Positions 1,525-52,744 of a stretch of DNA of 64,000 bases are shown here, piece after piece. Numbering within the stretch: the first letter of the stretch is position 1; every line of letters begins with the position of its first letter. The DNA comes from an uncultured bacterium (lineage in GTDB: Bacteria; Patescibacteriota; Saccharimonadia; UBA4664; SCTI01): contig CAVRJJ010000001.1 of the NCBI GenBank assembly GCA_963721685.1, forward strand, positions 303,950-367,949, in the 5' to 3' direction. The notes below the pieces were generated by a model. That model had not been told where the DNA came from, did no database searches, and saw only the letters and a list, made by a program, of their open reading frames with translations. The position numbers were made by a program, and so were the translations under genes.

Positions 1525-2553
1525 ATGTCAGACACTATTGTCCCCCAAACTGCTTTTAATTATGTCCAGACCGCTGAGGCAATCTTAAGCGCGCTTCGCA
1601 ACGAGCGAGACCGTAAAATTGTCGCCCAGCGGTACGGCTTAGGCTTACCGAAGCGCCACACGCTTGAAAAAATTGGCAGCCAGTTTGGTATTACCCGCGA
1701 ACGGGTAAGGCAAATTGAGAAGGCCGCCACCGTTAAGCTACAGCAAACCGCTTCAGCGGAGCTCACCCGTGTCGACAACGCCTTAAAGCAGCATTTAGCC
1801 CGCCAGGGCCAGGTGGATCTGCTGGATAACGTCGCCGCGGCAGTCGGCGCCCATACGCCCGCGCAGCAAGCCTACATTTCTTTCTTAGCAGCGCTGGCCC
1901 CGAGTATTGAAATTATTGAAGACAACGACCATTATCATCCGGCGTTATCCTCGTTGCCCGAGTACCATAAGCAACGAATTGCCGAGATCACCAGCCATCT
2001 TGTTCATCAGCTCAAGCAAAAAGCCAAACCTACCCCAATCGACGCGCTGCATAAAGCGCTCCCATTTGAGATTACCCAGCAAACCGCCGAACAGGTTGCT
2101 AAAGCTTCTAAACGGCTTGCTCACCATGATGGCCATTGGGGATTAAGCCATTGGCCGGAGGTAAACCCTCGTTCTATCCGAGACAAAACCTATTTGGTTC
2201 TGGGCAAACATGGTCGGCCTTTGCACTTTACCGATATTGCCACCAATATTGCCGGGCTTGGCAACCAAAAGCGCAGCGTAACAACCCAGGCGGTGCACAA
2301 CGAGCTTATTAAGGACCCCCGGTTTGTTCTGGTTGGAAGGGGGATTTACGCCCTGAGCGAATGGGGCTATACACCCGGGACCGTCGCCGATATCATTACC
2401 GAGGTATTGCGGGAAGAGTCACCACTCCATAAAGATGAAATCGTGAAGCGCGTACTGCAAAAGCGACAGGTTAAGACCACGACTATCGTGCTTAACCTAC
2501 AAGAAAAAGACCAGTTTGTACGCGTCTCAAAAGCCACGTACGCGCTTAAATAA
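1525..2553 (+). CDS. Sigma-70 region-4-like HTH protein with C-terminal winged-helix (HARE-HTH-like) domains; putative transcription regulator.
   Basis: The N-terminus carries a sigma-70 region-4-like HTH (RNERDRKIVAQRYGL...LEKIGSQFGITRERVRQIEKAATVKL), followed by wHTH-like C-terminal repeats. Confidence 0.55.
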   Translation: MSDTIVPQTAFNYVQTAEAILSALRNERDRKIVAQRYGLGLPKRHTLEKIGSQFGITRERVRQIEKAATVKLQQTASAELTRVDNALKQHLARQGQVDLLDNVAAAVGAHTPAQQAYISFLAALAPSIEIIEDNDHYHPALSSLPEYHKQRIAEITSHLVHQLKQKAKPTPIDALHKALPFEITQQTAEQVAKASKRLAHHDGHWGLSHWPEVNPRSIRDKTYLVLGKHGRPLHFTDIATNIAGLGNQKRSVTTQAVHNELIKDPRFVLVGRGIYALSEWGYTPGTVADIITEVLREESPLHKDEIVKRVLQKRQVKTTTIVLNLQEKDQFVRVSKATYALK

Positions 2554-2608: not shown

Positions 2609-5431
2609 GTGCACTATAGAACTGGCCAGTTCCGTTTGGGGAGTTATATGGATATTCTAGGGAATGTCTTAATCGCCGTTATTCAAATTATCGGAACGGT
2701 TTTATTTACCTATTACGGCTGGGTTGTAGTCGTTGGTTTTTTCCTCTTTCTTATCTGGCAAAATCGCCGGCGGGAACAGTGGGTGGGCAAAATCGAACAT
2801 GTCCTTCTCCACATTGAAGTACCAAAGGAGAATGAAAAGAAAGAGCTGTCGGCTGAGCAGATGTTTGCCAGTCTGCATGGGATTTTACGTCCGAAATCAG
2901 ACCTAAGGAAAGAAGGGTCACTCCAAGAACACATCAGCTTTGAAATCGTAACTATCAACGACCAGATCCGGTTCTATGTATGGACACCGCGCCACCTGAA
3001 AAACTTCGTGGAAGGCCAAATTTACGCCCAATACCCGAATGTCCAGATTGAAGAAAGTAGCGCTGATTACGCCACCACCGAGCTGGGTTCAAGGCAGGCT
3101 TACACTACCGTGCTTGGCCTCACCAAAACCGAGGTACTCCCCATAAAAACCTTTCAATCATTTGAGGTTGACCCGCTTGCGGGGATTACCGCGACACTTG
3201 GCAATATGGAAGACGCCGGCGAAGAAATGTGGATTCAAATACTGGCCCGGCCAGTCGACGACGATTGGCATAAAAAAGGATTGGAATACATTGAAGATGT
3301 AAAAGCCGGGAAAACCTACGAACCCTTTGAGCAACGGATTTTTAAAGGCTTGCTCGCGATTCCAAGCTATATTTTCAGCAACTTTCTTGGCGCGTTGTTT
3401 ATCCCTCCCTCGGAAGTAAAGAAGGAGGAGAAAAAAGCCGACGCTATGTCTACCGGCCAGCAAGCCCTAGTGAAAGCGGCCGAAGAAAAAATTAATAAGT
3501 TGGGTTATGAAGTTTATATTCGTATTGTCTATCTGGGCAATGATCCCACGGTGGCACGTATGCGCAACCAAGCTATTATTGGCGGTTTCAAACAGTTTAA
3601 TACCACAAACCTTAATGGTTTCAATGTCGATTCAAGCAAGGAAGGCAGCGGGGGAGTAGACGCCTACCGGGCGCGGCTCTTTACCGATGATGGGGACATT
3701 CTTAATATTGAAGAACTAGCCAGTGTTTATCATTTACCCCATAAAAGCGTGGAAACGCCTAACATGGTATGGACCACCACCAAAACTTCCGAGCCGCCAT
3801 CTAATCTCCCAACTGAAACCAGCGCCGAACCCACTGCCATCAGCTTGTTTGCCGCTACCAATTTCCGCGGCAAGCAGCTTAAGTTCGGCATGAAGCGGAT
3901 AGACCGGGGGCGCCACCTTTACATCATTGGCCAAACCGGCACCGGTAAGTCCAAACTACTCAACCTGTTAACCTTATCCGATATTTATCACGGGGAGGGG
4001 ATGGCTATCATTGACCCCCACGGCGATTTCGCCACCGACATGCTGCAATATGTACCTGAACACCGCCTTCAGGACGTTATTTACTTTAACCCGACCGACC
4101 GGGACTTTCCTATAGCCTTTAACCCCCTAGAAGTTTATGACCAGTCCTTTAAAAACGACATTTCATCGGAAATGATCGGGGTATTGAAACGAATGTTTGA
4201 ATCCTGGGGTCCCAGGCTTGAATACATCCTGCGGTTCACCCTGCTGGCGCTGCTTGATTACCCCGACGCCACAATGCTGGGAATCACCCGCATGCTCACC
4301 GACAAGGAATTCCGAAAGAAGGTTATTAAGGAAATTAAGGATCCGGTGGTAAAAGCCTTCTGGGTTACCGAGTTTGCCTCCTGGAATGATAAGTTTGCCA
4401 ATGAAGCGGTAGCGCCAGTATTGAACAAGGTAGGCGCTTTCACCGCCAACCCGTTAATCCGTAATATCATCGGTCAACCCCGTTCCAGGCTCGATTTGCG
4501 TAAGATTATGGATGAAGGCAAGATTTTAGTGGTAAACCTCTCCCGCGGTCAAATAGGGGAAGATAACGCGAGCATTTTAGGCGCTCTCATGGTGACGAAG
4601 ATCCAGCTCGCGGCCATGTCACGGGCTAATATCCCGCTTGAGCAACGCCGACCCTTTTATTTGTATGTCGATGAGTTCCAGAACTTTGCCACCGAAAGTT
4701 TCGCCACCATCCTAAGTGAAGCCCGCAAATATGCGCTTAACTTAACCGTCGCTAACCAGTACGTCTCACAAATGCCGGAGGAGGTTCGCAGCGCGGTATT
4801 TGGCAACGTCGGTTCGATCGTAAGCTTCCGGGTGGGCGTAGATGACGCGCCGATCATCGCCAAAAACTTCGCGCCGCTGTTTGAGCCTGATGACCTTGGC
4901 AAACTCCATAATCAACATATATTAATAAATATGAGCATTGATGGAGAAAAATCCATCGCCTTTTCCGCTAAGACCCTGCGCATGCCGGACCCCGAAGCCG
5001 ATTTCACCGCCCAGCTCGTTGATTTAACCCGCGAACATTACGCTTCGGATAGGGCCAGCGTGGAACAGGAAATCTCGGAATGGACACTGGGTCAAGCCAC
5101 CACCGAGAAATCATCCGGCGATCAGGACGCTAAATCCGAATCTACGCCGACTGAACAAAAACCGAACACGTTTTTAGGAGGGCTGAAAAACCCTGAACCG
5201 CCACAACCAGCCAAGACCGCTCCCGCACATCAAGGCCAACAGGGAAGCAACAGGAGCAAAAGACGTGGAAAAGGCTCTGGCGGTGGCCAAAACGACCAGA
5301 AGGACAACAGGAGTGGCCAGCGGCAGCCGGTGGGCGCGGGGGCGCCGGTACGCATGGAAACGCAACAATCCCAGCAAGTAGTTCGTCCCGGGGAGAGCGT
5401 AGCAGTGCGGCGCGCAGTTGAGGAACAGTAG
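2609..5431 (+). CDS. Membrane-anchored TraD/TraG/VirD4-family (type IV coupling protein-like, FtsK/HerA superfamily) ATPase with a long Gln/Gly-rich disordered C-terminal tail. An alternative start is at 2654.
   Basis: Two N-terminal TM helices. Walker A is IIGQTGTGKSKLLNLL and Walker B is YLYVDEFQNF. A TraG-D_C-like motif (FGNVGSIVSFRVGVDDAPIIAKNF) is present. The C-terminal roughly 150 aa is low-complexity. Confidence 0.6.
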   Translation: MHYRTGQFRLGSYMDILGNVLIAVIQIIGTVLFTYYGWVVVVGFFLFLIWQNRRREQWVGKIEHVLLHIEVPKENEKKELSAEQMFASLHGILRPKSDLRKEGSLQEHISFEIVTINDQIRFYVWTPRHLKNFVEGQIYAQYPNVQIEESSADYATTELGSRQAYTTVLGLTKTEVLPIKTFQSFEVDPLAGITATLGNMEDAGEEMWIQILARPVDDDWHKKGLEYIEDVKAGKTYEPFEQRIFKGLLAIPSYIFSNFLGALFIPPSEVKKEEKKADAMSTGQQALVKAAEEKINKLGYEVYIRIVYLGNDPTVARMRNQAIIGGFKQFNTTNLNGFNVDSSKEGSGGVDAYRARLFTDDGDILNIEELASVYHLPHKSVETPNMVWTTTKTSEPPSNLPTETSAEPTAISLFAATNFRGKQLKFGMKRIDRGRHLYIIGQTGTGKSKLLNLLTLSDIYHGEGMAIIDPHGDFATDMLQYVPEHRLQDVIYFNPTDRDFPIAFNPLEVYDQSFKNDISSEMIGVLKRMFESWGPRLEYILRFTLLALLDYPDATMLGITRMLTDKEFRKKVIKEIKDPVVKAFWVTEFASWNDKFANEAVAPVLNKVGAFTANPLIRNIIGQPRSRLDLRKIMDEGKILVVNLSRGQIGEDNASILGALMVTKIQLAAMSRANIPLEQRRPFYLYVDEFQNFATESFATILSEARKYALNLTVANQYVSQMPEEVRSAVFGNVGSIVSFRVGVDDAPIIAKNFAPLFEPDDLGKLHNQHILINMSIDGEKSIAFSAKTLRMPDPEADFTAQLVDLTREHYASDRASVEQEISEWTLGQATTEKSSGDQDAKSESTPTEQKPNTFLGGLKNPEPPQPAKTAPAHQGQQGSNRSKRRGKGSGGGQNDQKDNRSGQRQPVGAGAPVRMETQQSQQVVRPGESVAVRRAVEEQ

Positions 5432-29724: not shown

Positions 29725-30892
29725 CTACCGCTTTAATTCCTGCAGCGCACGGTCCAACTGTGGATCGCGGCCAGCGCTAAAGTCCTCAGGCGTTTGTTTA
29801 ACTTCAATGTCCGGCTTGATCCCAACCTTATCAATACCCTTGCCGCTGGGAGTAAACCAATGGGCTACGGTAATTTTAACCTGGGCACCGCCATCCAACT
29901 TTATTACTTCTTGGACACTGCCTTTGCCAAAACTCTTTTCGCCAATAAGCTTGGCCTTGATGTTATCACGTAACGCCCCCGCCACAATTTCACTTGCCGA
30001 TGCGCTGCCGCCATTAATTAATACCACTACCGGCAGCCCTTCAAGCGCCCCATTACCGGTACTGGTAAGTTTCGTCTGGCTGCGGCCATTCTTGCGTTCA
30101 TCCACTACCACCTTGCCCGCCGGTACAAACTGGCTTACCACGTCTACCGCCGCCGACAAGTAGCCGCCCGGATCATTTCGGACATCCAATACAATTCCCT
30201 TTACTCCCTGGGCTTTAAGCTCGCTAGCAGCCTTATTCATTTTTTCCGAGGTGTCGTCGCCAAAGGTAGAAATTTTAATATAACCAATACCGCCTTCTTT
30301 CATGCTCCAGGTCACACTTGGTACATCAATAACCTCCCGGGTAATCGTTAAGCTCCAACGGTTGGTTGCTGCCGCGTAGTACCGTTAAGGTTACCTTGGT
30401 ACCGGCCTTGCCCCGGATCTTTGCGACCGCTTCGTCGACGGTGTAGGAGGAAGTATCTTTTTTATTAATTCCGGCAATATAATCCCCGGCACGTAAACCG
30501 GCTTTTTCAGCTGGCGCTCCGGCAATCGGGGAAATTACGGTGAGCTTGTTGTTTCGAATACCGATTTCCGCGCCAATACCCGAAAGGGTGCCGCTTAACT
30601 GGTCCTGCAAATCCTTAGCGTCTGAGGCATCCAAGTAAACCGTGTAGGGGTCCCCGGTGGAGCTTATTAAACCGGCCCGGGCTCCATCCAAGACTTTAGC
30701 GCTATCGATTTTACCGTCATACCGGCGTTGCAACAAATCGTAGGTATCGTTTAAGCTTTCAAAATCCAAAGGCTGATGCCCAATTGACCAGGTATGAGGA
30801 ATGACTTTAGGCGCGGCTTGGCCGCCTACAAAAGCAATACCGGCAACCAGTATCGGCACAATAAGCCCTAATTTACGACCGCGTCGCTCCAA
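29725..30892 (-). CDS. C-terminal processing (S41, Ctp/Prc-like) peptidase. Its PDZ domain (30326-30892) and S41 catalytic domain (29725-30315) are in different frames, a +1 frameshift near 30345-30352.
   Basis: One frame gives PDZ (GIGAEIGIRNNKLTVISPIAGAPAEKAGLRAGDYI). The other gives S41 (IGYIKISTF...VLINGGSASASEIVAGAL...EKSFGKGSVQ). Confidence 0.8.
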
Positions 30893-36439: not shown

Positions 36440-36988
36440 TCATTTTTTATTTTCCACATACTCCAGCTTCTTTTTATTAACTGAAACAAAATCGAAGTAA
36501 GTTGGATATTTATTTAAAAGTTGAGAATAATTTACTTTATTAGGGATAAGAATGGTGCCCAATTTTTCTTTCTCATAGAGGTATTCGTAAAGGCTTAGGA
36601 AGTCTCCGTCACCCGATACAATTACAGCCTTATCGTAATTATCAATTTCTCTGGCAGCAGCGTAGAGCACGAGGTCCGTATCGACGTTTCCCTTGACCTT
36701 CGTCTTGCCTTCCCCGTCTTTGAATGATGTTGTTGGCTTTAGTACAACGACATAACCCGCGCGTTGCAGATAGGCATACAGTCCTTCATTGCCGGGCAAG
36801 TTGCCAATAAATAAAAATGCTTCCTCAACCTTATATTTATCCTTCAAGAAACGACGAAATTTTTCAAAATCAAGCTTCCATCCCGTATAAACTTTTCTTC
36901 CATGTCGAGTAATGTCTTCCCCCACTCCCATATTGAGGTTTTGGCTATCGATGAAGGCATATACCTTTACATGTGCAGTTTTAGACAT
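36440..36988 (-). CDS. NYN/LabA-like (PIN-fold) nuclease domain protein.
   Basis: VYAFIDSQNL...NVDTDLV...IVSGDGDF is a LabA/NYN signature. The gene sits in local AT-rich DNA. Confidence 0.65.
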   Translation of the reverse strand: MSKTAHVKVYAFIDSQNLNMGVGEDITRHGRKVYTGWKLDFEKFRRFLKDKYKVEEAFLFIGNLPGNEGLYAYLQRAGYVVVLKPTTSFKDGEGKTKVKGNVDTDLVLYAAAREIDNYDKAVIVSGDGDFLSLYEYLYEKEKLGTILIPNKVNYSQLLNKYPTYFDFVSVNKKKLEYVENKK

Positions 36989-37142: not shown

Positions 37143-37998
37143 TTATTCTCGGTTAAGCAGTTTATCGGCCAAAGCCTTCTTACTGCGGCGATAGGCTACG
37201 ACGGCGTAACCAAGGGCACCGGTACCGGCCATACCAGCCAAAGCGGCTTCAGGACCAGTCTCAGGAAGAGCAACCGGAGTTACCGGAGTCGCGGGAGGCG
37301 TTACCGGAGGGGTAGGAGGGGTTAGGAGGGGTAACCGGAGGGGTAACCGGAGCACTAACCTTAACTTTAAAGGTCACGTCCGCGATGTAGTGGAAACAGC
37401 CCGGGATTAACCCGTTGAGGCTGTCATAACCAAGCAATGTACCTTTGGTAACATCGCCCAGGATAGCACCGTTAACGGCGCCTTTACTGGCAATACGGGC
37501 AGAGCCAGGAACAACGCTGACTTTTACCTTACCATCGCTGGTAACGTTGGTGTCATCGAAGATGGTTCCGGGAGTAGCGTTCGAAGCCGAAATGTGGCCG
37601 CGAATGTTAGTGGAGCCATTAACTTCACTGGGCATATCTACCTTTAAAGTAGTGTTTTTAGCGTTCAGCTTTTCTGGATCGCTTGTCTGGGCAGGATCGG
37701 CGTTGTTGTGCACATACGCGCGAACTTCATATTCTTGGCCGGCAACTAATTTCACCGAGTCAGAATAAGCACCGCCAACTTGACGAATCGTTAAGAAGTT
37801 ACGTTCATCACCATATTGGGGGGTGTTGGTAAATGAGTTGAACTGGACATGGCCAGGACCACCACAAACACCGGTGATAGAACCACAGTTGAAGGTGGGA
37901 CGATCAGGACCAAAAGCGGCAAATGCCGTCATCGGCACCGCTAAGGTCATGGCAGCTACCGCGCTAACGGCAACTCCCTTTTTAAATTTTGCATTCAT
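37143..37998 (-). CDS. Sortase-anchored surface protein (signal peptide, Ig-like/adhesin body, PT-repeat stalk, LPETG + TM + RRSKK sorting signal). A +1 frameshift sits inside the PT-repeat stalk near 37285-37300.
   Basis: A 245-aa ORF ends ...VTPPVTPPNPSY... and an overlapping 70-aa ORF supplies ...TPPVTPPATPVTPVALPETGPEAALAGMAGTGALGYAVVAYRRSKK. The junction lies in GGTAACCGGAGG tandem repeats. Confidence 0.75.
37261..37345. repeat. Tandem GGTAACCGGAGG(G)-type repeats encoding the Pro/Thr/Val linker of the LPETG protein.
   Basis: The repeats are seen directly: gttaccggaggggtaggaggggttaggaggggtaaccggaggggtaaccggag. Confidence 0.7.
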
Positions 37999-38228
37999 AG
38001 TATCTTTCTCCTTTGCCGTTTAAGGCAAAATTACTTAATCACACGTGTTAGTAAGTTATCGGGTTGGGCCGCGAATTGTGAAAGGACACTCTCTGCATGA
38101 GAGGCCTGACAGCTGGATAGTCATAGATGTTCAAGTCGGACACCCGACCAAGTCTGCTCTTAAGTCCCCGAAGGGTAAAAAGAGTCTTACGACTTGGCCG
38201 GATGGACCCGACTATTGCTGGTTGATGT

Positions 38229-39200
38229 TCACCGTGGCCGGTCGGCGCCCGAGCTCGCCGGGGGATCCCGGTTGAAGACCTTCCGCACGATGCGGAGCTT
38301 CTTCTTCGAGCACTCGAACTTGCCGGTAACCGTCACGGTCTTGTTGCCGTAGGGACGGGCGCCATGTCCACGGAAGTCACCGGCACGAATGACCCACTTG
38401 AAGGGCCTGCCGTACTGAGTGGCTCCGAACTGGCGTCCGTCGACCTTCAGCTTCACCTGCGTCAGGTAGCGGGTTCCCGCTCCCTTCAGACGAAAGGTGA
38501 TGGTTCCGCGCGGGCTCTTGGGAGCCTGATGCGGGGTCCATACGAGCTTCACGGCTCCGCGCCTGTCGACGCACTTCGTCGTCCTCTTCGGCTTCGGCTT
38601 GGCCTTGGCCTTCGGAGTTGGAGTGGTGGTCGTCGGCGGGAGGCCCGGCGGGTGCGCGATGTACGTGTTGCACGAGTTGTTCGTGCAGTAGTTGGTGCAC
38701 GAGTACTTCGTGCAGATCTCGGTGTTGCACGACTGCACCGCGCAGTTGACCTGCGTGTTGCACGAGTCGCCAACGCACTTCACCGTGTCACCCGGAGGGG
38801 GCGGCGGCGGTGGGGGCGGCGGCGGGGGCGGCGGCGGTGGTGGCGGCGGCGGCGGAGTGCCGGGCTGCTTCGCACAGACGAACGCGCCCGCGTTGTACGT
38901 GATGTTGACCTCGGGGAACGAGTAGCTCTTCTCGAAGATGAGCTCCGAGTAGTAGTTGGTCTTCATCTCGTACCGCAGCGTGGTGTTGTACTCGTTGTTC
39001 GGTCCCGGGTACGTCCCCAGCTCGTCGGCCCTCAGAAGGAGGCCGGTGCGGTTGGGGTTGCCGGCATACGTCGGCGCGGGCGACCCGTCGGGACACGTCG
39101 AGGCCATGGCCACGGGTGCCGCGAAGAGCATCATGGCAAGGGCCATGAGCACGATCGCGATCCTCGCGACCGGATTGGTCTTACGGGTACGGCGGGTCAT
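38229..39200 (-). CDS. Secreted protein with signal peptide, a 22-residue poly-proline tract, Cys-rich SCNT/CT(K/N)Y micro-repeats and a Lys-rich segment. It is the cargo of the GC-rich element.
   Basis: ATG at 39200 is preceded by an AGGAGG RBS 7 nt upstream. The N-terminus MTRRTRKTNPVARIAIVLMALAMMLFAAPVAMA is a signal peptide. The track ORF start (39437) is a read-through of the terminal repeat. Confidence 0.65.
   Translation of the reverse strand: MTRRTRKTNPVARIAIVLMALAMMLFAAPVAMASTCPDGSPAPTYAGNPNRTGLLLRADELGTYPGPNNEYNTTLRYEMKTNYYSELIFEKSYSFPEVNITYNAGAFVCAKQPGTPPPPPPPPPPPPPPPPPPPPPGDTVKCVGDSCNTQVNCAVQSCNTEICTKYSCTNYCTNNSCNTYIAHPPGLPPTTTTPTPKAKAKPKPKRTTKCVDRRGAVKLVWTPHQAPKSPRGTITFRLKGAGTRYLTQVKLKVDGRQFGATQYGRPFKWVIRAGDFRGHGARPYGNKTVTVTGKFECSKKKLRIVRKVFNRDPPASSGADRPR
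38795..38858. repeat. GGC/GGG simple-sequence repeat encoding the poly-Pro tract (reverse strand).
   Basis: ggggcggcggcggtgggggcggcggcgggggcggcggcggtggtggcggcggcggcgg. Confidence 0.8.
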
Positions 39201-39646
39201 TCCAGACCTCCTGGTCGGTAAATGGAGCAACGTGGCTCCAGAATCCCCAATGCACTCATGAGAGTACACTAGTCCTGATCGTCCACGTTGCAGGGCGATG
39301 GTCAGGATCCTACCGATGTTGCGTAATTGGCGCAGCAACATGAGCAGAGTCCTGACCATCAAATAACCGATATCCAGAAAACCTGTAGCAATAGTCGGAA
39401 TTGGGTCTTGAAGACCCATGACTATCCAGCTTGTCAAAGTTCCCTATGAAAGACCGGCTGGTTTCCACCTCACCTACGTCTCGCAGAGTAATGACACGTA
39501 ATATATCATGCTTATGCAATTTTGTCAAGGAGTTGATGGTAAAATGTCTATGATTTATGATCAGATTAGGCGATCTGGAGATTATTGCTTATGCAAAATA
39601 CCGAATTATCTATTGGGAATATGCCTAAAAGATAGCGCTTTAGGCG

Positions 39647-40549
39647 TTATGTCTTAAATAGAAAGCTTTGGAGTATCTGATAATACTCCTCTGGCATCGC
39701 GTGAACAGACAGATGCTTGTAGTCGTACTCCGGGTCAGGGAACTCAAAGCGCTCCAGTTCAGGGTAATTACCAGTCCCCCGCGCCATCACCATGGCCTCC
39801 CGGCACTCCTGTATCTCCCCCACGCACTCGAAGGGCTTATGTCCTTCTATTCCGAGTAACTCGCGATAGGTGTGATCCAGATCGGGTTTCTCAAAAAGGT
39901 TTTCGCCATTAAATAGTTCCATCAGATCAACCTTGGGTGCAAACGGAGCAAATATGAGGTACACAAAAGCGCATTTCGGACATTCGCCACACCAGGTAAG
40001 CCCCTCTTTATGACTAAGGCTAAAGTTACGGTTACAGGAGCTAAATGTACCCTGGTACTGCTCAAGCCAGTTGGTGGTAAAAAGCTCGGCAATCCGCAGT
40101 TCACTTAAGGGGCGCAAAAAAGAAAAATAGTGAATATCGGGAGATATGTTTAATCTCACGTACTCCTGAAAATCGCGCTCAAACTCCAGGGTTTTTGAAT
40201 ACTGGTGGTTTACCGATATCTCCTGATAATCCAGGTTGCCTTCACCGGCTGAAGATTCATTGGAGAGGGCTATATGCCGGTTTCCGGTTAAAATGGCGCT
40301 CACCACGGAAGCGAACGCCAGATAGGCCGAGATGGGAACGTGGCCGTTATAGGCACCTTTGGCGTTAAGATCCTTCAGCTTGGAGTCAAGTGTACGTTCA
40401 ACCTGAAGATGCGACTTCCCGATCTGATCAATCTGGGGTTTAAGTTGTTCGGCATGGTTAATGGTCCAGCTGGTGAACTGCTGATTGGAGGATGCCAGGA
40501 TTCCGGCAGTGGTTAACGAGTCCTTACCGCCGCCAATCGGTACTATCAA
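39647..40549 (-). CDS. QueC-family PP-loop ATP pyrophosphatase-like protein with a CGECPKC zinc ribbon and a roughly 80-aa C-terminal extension. It is a lone gene with a TTG or unresolved start.
   Basis: PP-loop GGGKDS is present. Compare GHVPISAYLAFASV with QueC VPGRNLVFLSFA, and SSCNRNF...TWCGECPKC with QueC C...CGECPAC. It lies in AT-rich DNA with no queD/queE/queF nearby. Confidence 0.55.
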   Translation of the reverse strand: MIVPIGGGKDSLTTAGILASSNQQFTSWTINHAEQLKPQIDQIGKSHLQVERTLDSKLKDLNAKGAYNGHVPISAYLAFASVVSAILTGNRHIALSNESSAGEGNLDYQEISVNHQYSKTLEFERDFQEYVRLNISPDIHYFSFLRPLSELRIAELFTTNWLEQYQGTFSSCNRNFSLSHKEGLTWCGECPKCAFVYLIFAPFAPKVDLMELFNGENLFEKPDLDHTYRELLGIEGHKPFECVGEIQECREAMVMARGTGNYPELERFEFPDPEYDYKHLSVHAMPEEYYQILQSFLFKT

Positions 40550-40669
40550 CCCATTGCCATAGGAGGATTGCGGATTGGACTGGATCTTCGGGTCTACTGG
40601 AAAGGAGCAAGCTTATCGGGACTTAGCTGGTTTTTGACTAGAAACTCCCCTAGTCCTTGTCGGTAGAGC

Positions 40670-40945
40670 TTATTGAAGAAACTTGGCTTGCTGCTGGTTC
40701 AATCCCTGGCCCTTAATGATGATCTGGGGCGCCAGATAAGCCTTAAAGTAGGAAATGCCGCCGACCAACCATAACCCGCGTACGGCGTTTTCGAGGACTA
40801 TAGGATTAAGGCCGTAGTAAGGATCCCCGTCAGCTTTAAGTGTTTCCGTAAAGTGCAACTCTCCATCATAGGAGTAGCGTAAATGTAAGGTTTGCTCTGT
40901 CTGGTTAAAGTCGTACCCCTCAAAAATAAAGGCTCTGATAGGTTT
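40670..40945 (-). CDS. Small ORF (about 91 codons) in the same frame as, and immediately after, the murD stop codon. It has no ATG and a possible TTG start at 40858.
   Basis: The frame stays open from the murD TGA onward: KPIRAFIFEGYDFNQTEQTLHLRYSYDGELHFTETLKADGDPYYGLNPIVLENAVRGLWLVGGISYFKAYLAPQIIIKGQGLNQQQAKFLQ*. Confidence 0.25.
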   Translation of the reverse strand, partial: KPIRAFIFEGYDFNQTEQTLHLRYSYDGELHFTETLKADGDPYYGLNPIVLENAVRGLWLVGGISYFKAYLAPQIIIKGQGLNQQQAKFLQ

Positions 40946-46603: not shown

Positions 46604-46695
46604 AGTGGGCTTATTATAGCAGGTTTAATGAGTCGCCGACCCGAGCAAAGCCTTAAACATGACGAAGCCCCGCGGAGGGGCTCTCGACGGCTTCA

Positions 46696-47926
46696 TCAGC
46701 CGTACTTCGCCATGCCCGCAGGGCATTGTATTTCAGAGCAACCGCACCACATAGATATGCGGGTGGGCCTCCAGCTCTGTGACCAACTCGTCCGGTACGC
46801 GTTCGTTGAGATCGAAGACCGAGTAGGCCAACTCGTCCTTTGAGACGTTCCCCATGTCCTCGATGTTGAGCTCCGTACTTGGCGATGATCGCGGTGAGCT
46901 CGCTCAGTATGCCTTCCGTCGTTGGCGTGGACGATGGTCAGCCGATGCTCGGAAGCCCGCGACAGAACGAGATCGGGCAGGTTGACAGCATTCCTGACGT
47001 TGCCATGTTCGGCGAAATCGATCAACTGTCGCGCAGCCATGACCGAACAGGCCGCTTCCGCCTCGGCGGTGGAACCACCGATGTGCGGCGAGACCACCAC
47101 GCAGGCATGACCCGCTAGTGCCTGCATCCGGTAGGTCGGTGAGATACCTCCCCACCTTGCCAGCATTGAGCGCGTCGATCAGTGGTTCCGTCTGAACCAA
47201 CTGTGCCCGAGCCGTGTTCACGAGCATCACGCCCGTCTTCATGAGCTCGAACTCGCGCGGGCCAATCATGGCGTCGGTCCGCGGTCCGCCAGGTACGTGC
47301 AGCGACACCACGTCGCTGCGGCGAAGCAACTCGCTCGAGGCTGTCAACGAGTTCAACGCCCACGTACTCGAGGAACTCGCGAGCATCAGCGCTGATCCCC
47401 GGGTCGTACCCGAGGACGTTCATACGCAATCCGGCATGAGCTCGAATGGCCACCCATCGCCCGATATTGCCGAGACCGACAACGCCAAGCGTCCGATGGC
47501 GCAGCTCGAAACCGGCAAAACGCTTCTTGTCTTTTTCTGCGCTGGACCGGAAAGCCGTCGTCAGTGCCGTGTTCGGCGACATAGGCGAAGGCTTCGGCGA
47601 GCTTGCGCGCCCCGATCGTAATGAGTCCCAGCGTGTGTTCCACCACTCCGTTGGCGTTAGCGCCGGGGGTGTTTGGACGCCACCACACCTCGCTGGCTCA
47701 AGACAGCGAGAGGGAGGTTGTCGACACCGGTTCCAGCGCGGGCAAGCGCGATGACGCTTGCGGGCACCATCTCCGGCACCTCAAGGTATCCGCGATATGA
47801 GCGCAGCAGGATCAACAGCGGGTTAGGTTCCCGCTGGTCAGGATCGCAGGTGTACCCCGCGTCCCTCAGCAACTGCAAGCCGTCACGACCGATTTCATTG
47901 TGAAGACGTACGATCATTCCCCTCAC
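46696..47926 (-). pseudogene. Decayed D-3-phosphoglycerate dehydrogenase / D-isomer 2-hydroxyacid dehydrogenase (serA-like) gene in at least 5 frame-fragments on GC-rich (about 62%) DNA.
   Basis: Overlapping minus ORFs carry a PGDH N-terminal domain, a GxGxxG NAD site (VGLGNIG), ESDVVSLHVP...LMK...LVNTAR and HIGGSTAEA motifs in different frames. Confidence 0.65.
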
Positions 47927-50708: not shown

Positions 50709-52744
50709 CTACTTTACGCAGCCGCCAGGACGGCTGAAACACCACTGCAGTGTTTCGCGGACAGCCGGCGCGGCATATTGGGCGCCTTCGCCAGAATTCT
50801 GGATTAGAACTACCATTTCAATTTGAGGATCATCGTAGGGCGCAAAAGCCGTAAACCACGCGTGTGGCTTACGTTTTCCGTTGGGATCGGTTTCAGCCGT
50901 GCCGGTTTTTGCGGCCACCGCCACTGGCACCGATTCTTCAATTTTGCAGCACGCGGTACCGTAAGGCCGGTTCACCACCTCGCGCATAGCCCGTTTAACA
51001 AGGTTTAAATGGCTGGCCTCAATAAAGTTCTCATCCTGAATTTTTACTTGTGCCGAGCGGGTAACCACACCATTATCGCCAGTCAATTCCTTAAAGAAAT
51101 GCGGCTCGATGACTTTTCCCCCGTTCGCGATCGCGGCCTCAGCAACCGCCATTTGCAGTGGTGAGGCCAGCAAGTCGCCTTGCCCAATCGAAATATTATA
51201 GGTATCACCCACGGTCCAAGGTTCGCCGCTGAACTTTTGTTTCCACTCGGGCGTAGGAATCCGTCCGGCGGTCTTTTCCGGAAGGTCAATGGCGGGCAGC
51301 TTGCCTAAGGCCAAATTTATTGTAGTAGGTGGTTAGCTTGGAGACACCGAGACCGGCAATATTCCCATAACCGCCGCCGACCGTGTAAAAGAAGACATCC
51401 GAACTGACAGCGATGGCTTTTGATAAGTTTACCGCGCCATGCCCGCCCGGATCATACGAACGGTAGGTATATTTAATGGACGGGTCATACTTATTGGTTA
51501 TAACAATTGAACCAGTATCGTTAACGGTGGTATTGGGGCTAATTGCCCGCTCCTGAAGCGCCGCCGAACCAATCAGCGGTTTAATAATCGATCCAACGGG
51601 ATATGCTCCGGCAATGGCTTTGTTGAAAAGTGGTTGCGCGGCATTCTTCACTAGCTTTTGGTAATCTTCCTGCCCAATACCCCGCGCGAACAGGTTGTTA
51701 TCGTACCCCGGCAGGTTAACCACCGCCAATACTTCGCCGTTTTTTGGGTTAAGGGCAACTCCTGAAGCCTGGGACGCGCCGCTGGCCTGCATTTGGGCCT
51801 TAATGGCATCGGTAAGCTTATGCTGCAGCTCCATATCAATAGTTAAGGTTAAATTAGCCCCGGCTTTGGCCGGGCGTGAAGCCAGCAGCTTTATAGGCCG
51901 ACCAGCGGCATCAACTTCGGTCTGTTCAATCCCATTCTGGCCTTTTAGCAAATGCTCATACTGCTTCTCGATCCCCAGTTTTCCAATAAAATCGGTGGAC
52001 TTATAGTTAGGGTCGGCATCAAGGTCAGCCTGGCTCACCCGGCCGGTGTAACCCAGTATGGCCGAAAGCGTATCGTCGTTATACTGGCGGATTGGGTTGG
52101 TATCCAAGCTAAATCCCGGGAGCGAACCTGAGGCCTGGTCAAAGGCTAGCCATCGGTCCCGTTCAACATTACTTGCCACTAGACGCGCCTGAGGGTTCCG
52201 TAAGCAAGCAGCCAGTGCAACTTCAGGCTTTTTACGGCCGGCTATTTCGGCCGCTTGGCACTCTCCTTCTGCCTTAGCCGCTACGTCAGACGCGGGAACC
52301 CCCAGAAAGCCCTCCTACCGTGCTATAGAGCCGCTGCCGGGCCGCAGAATCGGTTTGGGGCAGTAGACTTGGTGTAACGGTAATGTCCACACTGGCTAAG
52401 TTTTCCGCCAAGACTGCTTTGTTACGGTCATAGATTATACCGCGCGGGGCCCGGGTGACCTTTTCGCGCAAGCGGTTGCCGTCCGCCAATCCCAAATTGC
52501 GCTGGCCTTGAACCAGCTGAAGGTGCGCGAGTTGGGCAATCAGAATTAAGGCCCCCAACACAACCAGCACAGCTACTATTACTAGCGGGCGCTTGCTCGT
52601 GGGGGTTTCAATTACACCGGCCGCGGCATCGGCCGGCAATATCGCGTCCGCCCACTGCTCGTGGCCCCCTTGGTCGCGTTTGATAGTAACCCGATCCTTT
52701 TGGGGATGTGCCTCGCCGCCATACCCAAACAACGATTTGCTCAC
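50709..52744 (-). CDS. mrdA: Penicillin-binding protein 2 (elongasome transpeptidase) split into three frame-fragments (52286-52744, 51286-52179, 50709-51314). There are two +1 frameshifts, near 52298-52311 and 51294-51300.
   Basis: Fragments carry the N-terminal TM/pedestal, the middle region (SIIKP = SxxK) and the C-terminus (KTGTAE) in order. The middle fragment's frame is open across the first stop, and the third fragment starts at TTG inside the second. Confidence 0.8.

Follow-up and report, generated by a model that had tools for sequence, protein, structure and literature searches.

Inverted repeats around a hypervariable secreted-protein gene of Saccharibacteria as probable pairing ends of one messenger RNA

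The DNA analyzed here is a 64-kb stretch from an uncultured saccharibacterium (contig CAVRJJ010000001.1; hereafter the window, with all coordinates given as positions in the whole stretch), and the subject is a minus-strand locus in which two inverted copies of one sequence, at 38109-38219 and 39387-39433, flank a single gene rich in guanine and cytosine (GC). The open reading frame (ORF) of this cargo gene (38229-39200, minus strand) encodes a 323-aa protein that consists of a signal peptide, a beta-rich N-domain, a run of 21 prolines, Cys-rich SCNT/CTxY repeats, a KAKAKPKPKR stretch and a beta-rich C-domain. A preliminary description of the locus, made from the sequence alone, had correctly listed an AGGAGG motif, a signal-peptide-like N-terminus, the SCNT/CTxY repeats and KAKAKPKPKR but counted 22 prolines instead of 21. 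The AGGAGG motif is the Shine-Dalgarno sequence (39207-39212, minus strand), located 6 nt upstream of the ATG and about 175 nt downstream of the upstream repeat copy.

The repeat search in the window aligns 38111-38148 with 39394-39431 (38 nt, 76% complementary) and 38208-38219 with 39387-39398 (12 of 12 nt complementary). In the 64 kb, the 14-mer AGCTGGATAGTCAT has exactly two occurrences, in opposite orientations, and so has the 12-mer CCGACTATTGCT; at up to two mismatches, AGCTGGATAGTCAT has three matches in the 64 kb, against 0.27 expected. The presence of an inverted repeat, beyond chance, is confirmed: the two segment ends are inverted copies, as originally proposed, although the outer end reaches 2-6 nt farther (TGACA) than had been described.

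Each copy comprises two arms with a top between them, all on the minus strand. In the upstream copy, element A (39387-39433), these are the A5' arm (39407-39433, sense CAAGCUGGAUAGUCAUGGGUCUUCAAG), the A3' arm (39387-39398, sense CCGACUAUUGCU) and, as the top, the palindrome GGGTC-TTGAA-GACCC (39403-39417), an alternative local hairpin that overlaps the A5' arm. In the downstream copy, element B (38109-38219), the B5' arm (38208-38219, sense AGCAAUAGUCGG) begins 10 nt past the stop codon of the cargo gene and is followed by a long G+C-rich hairpin as the top (38136-38207) and by the B3' arm (38109-38135, sense CUUGAACAUCUAUGACUAUCCAGCUGU). Two details of the preliminary description are accounted for by these tops: the extra insert of about 70 nt in the left copy is the 72-nt hairpin of element B, and the perfect palindrome at the right end, GGGTCTTGAAGACCC nested in ATAGTC/GACTAT, is the top of element A. 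A5' (CAAGCUGGAUAGUCAUGG...UUCAAG) is complementary to B3' (39407-39433 to 38109-38135), and A3' (CCGACUAYUGC) is complementary to B5', so that A5' and A3' can be treated as the 5' strands, and B3' and B5' as the 3' strands, of two long-range helices, helix 1 and helix 2, respectively. The Shine-Dalgarno sequence lies in neither of them.

Eleven further contigs of Saccharibacteria carry this repeat pair, always identically oriented and at the corresponding syntenic site (SecA/MurL - X - LPXTG - prfB), which gives 12 full loci (the window, L001, L061, L084/L096/L097, L086, L089, L095, L100, L101, L103, L105/L106 and L107). The order in all 12 is promoter, A with a short top, 5' untranslated region (UTR), ORF, B with a long G+C-rich top, and LPXTG gene, and the position is always between SecA (with or without MurD-MurL) and the gene for an LPXTG protein. 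The genomes are far apart, with MurL identity of only 42-62% among them. The locus in the nearest genome (L001) has the inverted motifs around a different secreted Cys-rich gene of 450-480 aa, between MurL and the LPXTG gene, and the product of this gene is unrelated by BLASTP to the window cargo. A metagenome scan with TGGATAGTCATRGNNNWTCAAG returned 14 contigs, three of which (L084, L086, L089) have one gene enclosed by an inverted pair with a spacing of 1.5-1.7 kb, and the others have single chance matches; no match to the repeat core was found in the viral collection scanned. Further full loci (L095, L096/L097, L100, L101, L103, L105/L106) were found from homologues of the LPXTG neighbour. 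A more distant metagenome-assembled genome (MAG) of Patescibacteria (L061; 42% GC, MurL 42% identical) has the same arrangement with altered arms. L107 has the order SecA, promoter, A, the conserved hairpin H2 described below, ORF, B, LPXTG and prfB; compared with the window, its SecA and PrfB are 71-72% identical, the LPXTG protein 58% and the cargo 32-38%.

A sigma-70-type promoter (39528-39500, minus strand; TTGACA, 17 nt, TATATT, with TG before the -10 box) is located outside the repeat pair and scores 11 of 12 in a consensus scan, ranking among the strongest of the region. In 11 loci, TTGACA-N17-TAtatT stands 75-85 nt upstream of A, with much of its spacer conserved as well; L061 has its own related version (TTGACA-17-TAAACT). 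A second promoter starting from the TTGACA that abuts A was considered and rejected, as there is no -10 box at 16-18 nt. Sequences that resemble the cargo promoter including the spacer (TTGACAAAA..CATAA...) also occur without an A element, at L017 857 and L027 3831 (both minus strand), and this may be a common type of strong promoter in the phylum.

With the transcription start placed from the promoter position, the predicted 5' leader (39434-39493, minus strand) contains a conserved ACTCTG...GGTGAGGTGG box and a small variable hairpin, as seen in alignments of 5 and 9 loci. At the other end, element B starts 0-12 nt past the stop codon across the loci, in some of which a U-run follows B3'. 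In the window, a terminator-like hairpin, CTCTC-ATGCA-GAGAG followed by TGTCCTTTCA (38079-38103, minus strand), marks the predicted 3' end; the hairpin (38103-38089) is a weak match in a consensus scan, and such sites are no commoner in the region than in shuffles. With a promoter upstream of A and with B after the stop codon, both arms are predicted to lie on one messenger RNA (mRNA) of about 1.4 kb. In L084/L095/L100/L102, the leader has at its predicted 5' end the octamer ACATTAAC or one close to it, which recurs 8-10 nt after B3'; the window lacks it.

Between element A and the cargo gene, the 5' UTR contains a second conserved element, H2, a long bipartite hairpin of 27 predicted pairs (39288-39365, minus strand). 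Its apical loop, GUGCCGCCCAC, is invariant in nine loci, with UGCGCCAAUUAC in the window, and 18 of the 27 predicted pairs show compensatory changes. A covariance model of H2 (R1) matches the window at 65.6 bits on the minus strand, scores the sense strand of the other loci about 45 bits above the antisense strand and has no match outside this locus in 1.18 Mb; corresponding hairpins lie at L084 1529-1606 (minus strand), L001 9222-9299 and L103 5500-5577. As judged from these alignments, H2 would be an independent sign of selection at the RNA level. The GGUGGGC of the leader box could pair with GCCCAC of the H2 loop in some loci but not in the window or L001.

The complementarity between A and B is maintained by matched changes in the two arms. 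Helix 1 (A5':B3') comprises 23 pairs in 11 loci (253 cells), 93.3% of which are paired; 8 of the 23 pairs have changed on both sides, a value that is reached by none of 500 shuffles, and registers slid along the arms pair at 29-44%. Helix 2 (A3':B5') comprises 13 pairs in nine loci, with 87.2% of the cells paired and both-side changes in 8 of the 13, again reached by none of 500 shuffles. The matched changes in both arms include AGC to AGU (L001, L095), GCUGGAUAG to GCCGAAUAG (L107), GUC to GUU (L103), GCUGG to AUUAG (L061), and CCGACUAC to GCGUYUAC in L103 and to CCGAUUAC in L105. In the local basal stem of A, by comparison, compensation on both strands is seen at zero pairs, and two loci disrupt the stem. 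A comparison of the flanks of all 63 window ORFs found exact upstream-to-downstream complementarity longer than 12 nt for the cargo gene alone.

The residual differences between the arms are biased by strand. Read on the sense strand, transition differences yield 11 G·U cells against 1 A·C (binomial p = 0.003); in helix 2, as read by eye from the alignment, four of the five go in the same (G·U) direction. The top of A behaves likewise (GGGUC/GAUCC and GGGUC/GACUC): in other loci its palindrome changes C to U in the 3' strand only, which leaves G·U on the sense strand. The hairpin tops of A and B are unlike in every genome and have never been homogenized. Gene conversion between DNA repeats would be expected to give another pattern, since conversion tracts would have erased this difference.

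The folding predictions point the same way. When the complete predicted window transcript (1414 nt) is folded, the minimum free energy (MFE) structure and the centroid both contain the two long-range helices, and the MFE folds of the RNA from A to B contain them in 10 loci and in L061, with the top of B as a side arm. By these predictions, the helices close the mRNA in all 11 loci folded, and every fold pairs 22-26 nt of A5' with the 3' end. Every locus has a top in element B, which differs in sequence among loci, folds locally in the window (-45.7 kcal/mol, z = -4.4, sense strand) and is a separate arm in all whole-transcript folds.

The strand-biased wobble, the unlike tops and the folding together favour an mRNA panhandle, which remains a prediction. 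We regard it as probable, with considerable room for doubt, that the repeats are 5'- and 3'-UTR elements of one mRNA that pairs end to end and thus provides a fixed frame around a hypervariable ORF. Elements A and B would be transcribed from the promoter at 39528-39500 as parts of a single minus-strand mRNA, in which A5' would pair with B3' in 17 + 6 bp with a 3-nt internal loop, and A3' with B5' in about 12 bp. The finished transcript would be closed as a panhandle or three-way junction that encloses the remaining 5' UTR and the whole ORF. H2 would be part of the frame, and the frame a fixed chromosomal feature of a Saccharimonadales lineage, whereas the ORF within it, encoding a secreted Pro/Cys-rich protein, would be free to vary, with domains reshuffled and whole ORFs differing among genomes. 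An end-to-end duplex of about 25 bp would control the fate of the mRNA whatever ORF it carried, acting as an RNase III-type processing site, as a stem that protects the ends, or as a fold-back that holds the full-length RNA in one state. We infer that the duplex would form in vivo and would affect processing, stability or translation. In length, the predicted helix 1 matches RNase III stems, which are uninterrupted or nearly uninterrupted duplexes of about 20 bp or more, formed by the sequences on either side of the RNA, and its complementarity is kept by compensatory change, as in the end-paired mRNAs of the hok, aapA1 and icaR type; no masking of the ribosome-binding site or translational activator was seen, the Shine-Dalgarno sequence being outside both helices.

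Several considerations weigh against the end-pairing model. Inverted DNA repeats that are homogenized by recombination co-vary by construction, so that the shuffle tests alone cannot separate pairing from gene conversion, and the helix structure was derived from the very sequences on which it was tested. The wobble bias comes from few independent events (6 columns against 1, p = 0.06). For an RNA of this size, MFE folding always favours a perfect 25-bp duplex and ignores both co-transcriptional kinetics and ribosomes. The promoter and the terminator are consensus matches, the latter a weak one. Unlike those of hok, aapA1 and icaR, the helices do not involve the Shine-Dalgarno sequence, and no translational mechanism suggests itself. 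Nor does the model account for the invariant loop of H2 or for the conserved leader that precedes A; an extension of the panhandle to the very 5' end through pairing of the leader with the sequence past B was tested and dropped, the duplex energies being not significantly better than those of shuffles (z from -1.8 to +0.8). Finally, the model leaves unaccounted for the excess of GC at third codon positions (GC3) in the cargo ORF, which is considered below.

The two elements could alternatively be independent local hairpins of common origin, with A as a 5'-UTR stem-loop (for example, a protein-binding or stabilizing one) and B as a terminator or 3' stabilizer, and with no contact between them. 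Each element indeed folds locally, B with the energy and z-score given above, the top of A is kept by G·U-compatible changes, and the U-run after B3' in some loci would suit a terminator. Local folding, however, does not require A and B to be complementary to each other, yet changes are matched at 16 pair positions, including those in L103, L105, L107 and L061, where the local basal stem is weakened. We consider two separate hairpins unlikely.

The gene inside the frame is the most variable of its neighbourhood. The encoded proteins are 320-550 aa long and the RNAs 1.3-2 kb, and the ORFs found between the same two repeats in different genomes are unrelated or mosaic. In this respect the segment acts as a slot whose content can be exchanged, and the cargo-cassette part of the preliminary description is supported. 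The architecture is shared, namely a signal peptide, an N-domain, a basic Lys-rich stretch, Cys-rich repeats, a proline run and a beta-rich C-domain, and the sequences are mosaic. The cargoes of L084 and L089, for example, share 88% identity over 313 aa, past which they have no relationship; the C-domain of L084 matches that of L001 (33%) and the C-domain of L089 that of L086 (29%). One C-domain family (the C-domains of L001, L095, L100 and L105) stands behind different N-parts, with the breakpoints in the Pro/Cys-rich linkers. The simplest account of this hypervariability is that homologous recombination takes place within the conserved flanks and the low-complexity linkers. Four further, independent metagenome contigs, likewise reached from homologues of the LPXTG neighbour, begin inside the cargo ORF or element B (L098 1-17, L099 1-54, L102 1-973, L104 1-204), as would be expected if several cargo alleles coexist in a population.

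The window cargo protein belongs to no Pfam family, has no match in a word-indexed search, and has a single true homologue among 1.84 billion representatives (P0121, E = 1.3e-35, 38% identity, full length), the other matches in that search being proline runs. P0121 is encoded in L107, in the same frame. The foreign, high-GC origin suggested in the preliminary description thus stays unproven, the only true homologue being an equally GC-rich gene in the same locus of another saccharibacterial contig. Donation from an actinobacterial host was considered and rejected, as no homologue beyond the locus was found among the 1.84 billion representatives, poly-proline matches aside. The cargo protein has no plasmid match and the segment DNA no phage match in the collections searched. 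The AlphaFold model of the protein has low confidence (predicted local distance difference test score, pLDDT, 52.8) and is too poor for a fold search.

The aberrant composition that first drew attention to the segment is real: the GC fraction is 0.60-0.69 inside and about 0.50 outside, and the cargo ORF (GC 0.656, GC3 0.867) is the sole GC3 outlier among the 63 ORFs, the others ranging from 0.39 to 0.65. The GC-rich stretch coincides, however, with the ORF and not with the whole repeat-bounded segment, the 190 nt from the start codon to the right repeat being of ordinary composition. With conserved genes of the flanks as the source of host GC3 (values of 0.67-0.74 are attained by small unnamed ORFs nearby in L103 and L105), cargo and host values are 0.867 and 0.50-0.63 in the window, 0.907 and 0.55-0.66 in L107, 0.887 and 0.57-0.66 in L105, and 0.773 and 0.50-0.59 in L103. 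In L001, L095, L096 and L100, the cargo (0.62-0.69) is about at host level (0.54-0.72), and in L061 it has a GC3 of 0.65 in a genome of 42% GC. An ORF-confined excess of +0.2 to +0.35 is thus seen in five of the nine loci (L103, L105, L107, L061 and the window) and is absent from the other four.

Codon bias of highly expressed genes is not the cause of the excess, because rpsB, tsf and frr of the window have GC3 of only 0.51-0.55. Nor is a single recent import awaiting amelioration an explanation, because the window and L107 are separated by an old split (SecA 72% identity) and both cargoes are still extreme. The excess may stem either from recurrent import out of a high-GC pool or from a recombination hot spot with GC-biased conversion. 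A second GC-rich stretch of the window (46650-47900; 0.59-0.64) contains part of a D-2-hydroxyacid dehydrogenase, of which 160 aa with just the NAD-binding domain are present, and an unassigned 102-aa ORF on the other strand, and looks like a truncated or frameshifted gene of different composition.

The end-pairing model admits an extension that would take in the composition as well. The frame could be a lineage-wide expression slot, in which a specific factor would recognize the UTR scaffold (the helices and the hairpin with the invariant GUGCCGCCCAC loop) and process, localize or license any ORF recombined into it, while biased gene conversion or repeated import from a circulating pool of high-GC genes would, at this recombination hot spot, keep the cargo GC3 at 0.77-0.91 in genomes with GC3 of 0.50-0.66. 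This proposal is speculative and, in our judgement, rather unlikely; if true, epibiotic bacteria of the candidate phyla radiation (CPR) would have in this locus an analogue of integron-like or antigen-variation systems that is framed by RNA and confined to a single site.

The variability of the cargo could also reflect exchange at the DNA level, with A and B as sites for a recombinase encoded elsewhere that swaps ORFs at a fixed expression site (compare inverted pdif/Xer modules or a one-slot integron). Different or unrelated ORFs between the same repeats, GC3 far above that of the genome in the window ORF and four others, contigs that start inside the cargo or B (L098, L099, L102, L104), as expected of polymorphic populations, and conservation of the arms at the nucleotide level in both copies would all fit such an exchange. 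However, homology runs on inside the repeats, through the 5' UTR and H2, and breaks within the ORFs, as between L084 and L089, so that A and B are not the exchange junctions. Furthermore, neither the 54 window ORFs scanned against Pfam nor the genes called in the related loci include a recombinase, the sites have no additional copies in the 64 kb, and the mismatch spectrum is strand-biased. Site-specific cassette exchange is accordingly unlikely. An integron attC site, in particular, is not apparent: a reading of the sequence found no RYYYAAC/GTTRRRY core, the ORFs scanned include no integrase, and the repeats are inverted and present on both sides.

Inverted repeats of 25 + 12 bp around the gene of a surface or secreted protein, with a promoter just outside, could also be the crossover sites of an invertase, such that inversion turns the gene off (phase variation), and repeated inversion, too, would produce concerted evolution of the arms. 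This alternative appears quite improbable. The orientation is the same in the 12 full and three readable partial loci (L098, L099 and L102), as represented in assemblies; no invertase was found in the 64-kb window or in the flanks of the related loci; the tops, which lie between homologous blocks, have never been homogenized; G·U exceeds A·C 11 to 1; and the local hairpin of A varies by sense-strand G·U alone.

The preliminary description had read the segment as a non-autonomous transposable element with cargo, that is, a miniature inverted-repeat transposable element (MITE) or mobile insertion cassette, on account of the terminal inverted repeats, the one passenger gene, the atypical composition and the lack of a transposase, which holds for the 54 window ORFs scanned against Pfam (these include no transposase, integrase or invertase domain); this reading is rejected and has next to no probability left, because order and orientation are fixed in all loci and there is no target-site duplication, the flanks ...GAGAGGCC|TGACAGCTGG and CCAGCTTGTCA|AAGTTCCC having no direct repeat. 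The copy pair is the only one in the 64 kb, the metagenome scan found the repeat core only at the same syntenic locus apart from chance matches, and the viral scan and the phage and plasmid collections gave no match. All 12 divergent genomes are occupied at the identical position and orientation, with no empty site among them, and the promoter and leader, which are outside the supposed element, are co-conserved with it. A search that covered the window, the related loci, the viral contigs and the phage and plasmid collections, but not complete genomes, yielded no autonomous insertion sequence with matching ends. The homologous 5' UTR continues inside the segment and, therefore, the repeats are not the boundary of the variable DNA.

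Other candidate explanations were also discarded. An assembly chimera is rejected on account of the host-type UTR elements that continue on both sides and of the homologous GC-rich ORF in the same frame in L107. A tRNA- or transfer-messenger RNA (tmRNA)-derived attachment site was dropped, as ARAGORN finds none and the likeness of A to a D-arm and anticodon-arm is merely visual. A small ORF (SWIVM...) across the repeat was rejected as coding because third codon positions are conserved too, on both arms. At the gathering threshold Rfam has no match to the window, even a cutoff of E <= 10 gives none over 37950-39700, and L089 shows only noise; none of the parts of the UTR scaffold was found to belong to a known RNA family in this database.

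Pairing between the ends of a bacterial mRNA has precedents. In hok and aapA1, the 5' and 3' regions of the full-length mRNA pair, are kept complementary by compensatory change and determine, up to the time of processing, which state the RNA is in (PMC9841398, PMC5416894). These type I toxin mRNAs (hok with its fbi/tac pairing; Helicobacter aapA1) resemble the proposed frame in having paired ends but are a few hundred nucleotides long and encode small toxins, whereas the present RNA is 1.3-2 kb and encodes a secreted protein of 320-550 aa. Moreover, access to their ribosome-binding region is under the control of the pairing, to which an antisense RNA is coupled; for the present RNA, whose helices leave out the Shine-Dalgarno sequence, no antisense partner was seen. 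In the icaR mRNA of Staphylococcus aureus, pairing of the 5' UTR with the 3' UTR creates a substrate for RNase III (PMC3868564). The icaR pairing is short, joins the 3' UTR to the Shine-Dalgarno region and concerns one regulator gene, in contrast to the two helices of the present frame (about 23 + 12 bp), which are far from the Shine-Dalgarno sequence and conserved in the lineage while the ORF changes.

Ribosomal RNA (rRNA) operons offer a further parallel: long inverted repeats flank the kilobase-sized 16S and 23S RNAs, form helices of at least 20 bp that co-vary between species and serve as processing stems for RNase III. These stems enclose non-coding rRNA, whereas here the enclosed RNA is a coding mRNA and cleavage would be only a presumed outcome. 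The frame is thus distinct from hok/aapA1, icaR and the rRNA stems in its size, in leaving the ribosome-binding site untouched and in its independence of the enclosed ORF. At the DNA level, MITEs and mobile insertion cassettes (such as MIC231 of Bacillus cereus) have inverted repeats that bound a passenger gene without a transposase; the present locus differs in its fixed syntenic site and in the lack of target duplication, dispersal and a cognate insertion sequence. In the 'minimal mobile elements' of Neisseria and in capsule-type loci, different genes occupy one site between conserved flanks and are exchanged by homologous recombination. Such replacement islands, unlike the present locus, have no conserved structured UTR frame and no complementarity between the 5' and 3' ends.

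Saccharibacteria are ultrasmall epibionts, and their attachment to and choice of host bacteria are poorly understood; to our knowledge, almost nothing has been reported on regulation at the RNA level in this group. The locus unites a strong promoter, a co-varying UTR scaffold that is not in Rfam, the most variable gene of the neighbourhood and an adjacent LPXTG gene. Should the end pairing prove real, bacteria would have in it a conserved mRNA panhandle that spans kilobases and is independent of the enclosed ORF, and it would provide a clean system for the study of communication between mRNA ends and of RNase III processing as well as a marker of candidate host-interaction genes in uncultivated genomes. 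The ORF-confined GC3 excess raises a separate question, that of recombination or biased conversion at the site.

On the minus strand of the window, the gene order around the locus is SerS, HPF, SecA, MurD, MurL, the segment, the LPXTG gene, a NYN-domain gene, prfB, FtsE/FtsX, CHAP and an S41 protease. The upstream neighbour (39647-40858, minus strand) had been described as an AT-rich, QueC-like gene; it is MurL (PF26299/PF26298, MurL_N and MurL_epimerase_C on the orthologue), and with a GC fraction of 0.487 it is not AT-rich. Its best relatives come from MAGs of Candidatus Saccharimonadales, at 62% identity at best. The downstream neighbour (37143-37998, minus strand) encodes an LPXTG cell-wall-anchored protein.

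Both neighbours are split over two frames in the window, MurL as 39647-40549 + 40670-40858 and the LPXTG gene as 37261-37998 + 37143-37355 (ORFs of 245 and 70 aa). The orthologues of both are intact, and those of the LPXTG gene always follow element B. Two other genes with intact orthologues are likewise split over two or three frames, an S41 C-terminal protease (29725-30315 + 30326-30892) and a PBP2-type transpeptidase (50709-51314 + 51286-52179 + 52286-52744). In these four, a long-read assembly may have introduced indel errors, or the genes may be true pseudogenes; the cargo ORF, unlike them, is intact. The NYN-domain gene (36440-36988, minus strand; GC 0.39, GC3 0.39) lies between the LPXTG gene and prfB, where related loci have either nothing or other unassigned genes of 285-487 aa, and this position is a second variable slot beside the first. 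Far from the locus, at the edge of the cell-division (dcw) cluster, a gene for a protein with sigma-70 region 4 and HARE-HTH (1525-2553, plus strand) adjoins one for a 940-aa HerA/TrwB-like ATPase (2609-5431, plus strand), and the pair may be the remnant of a DNA-translocation or conjugation-type module.

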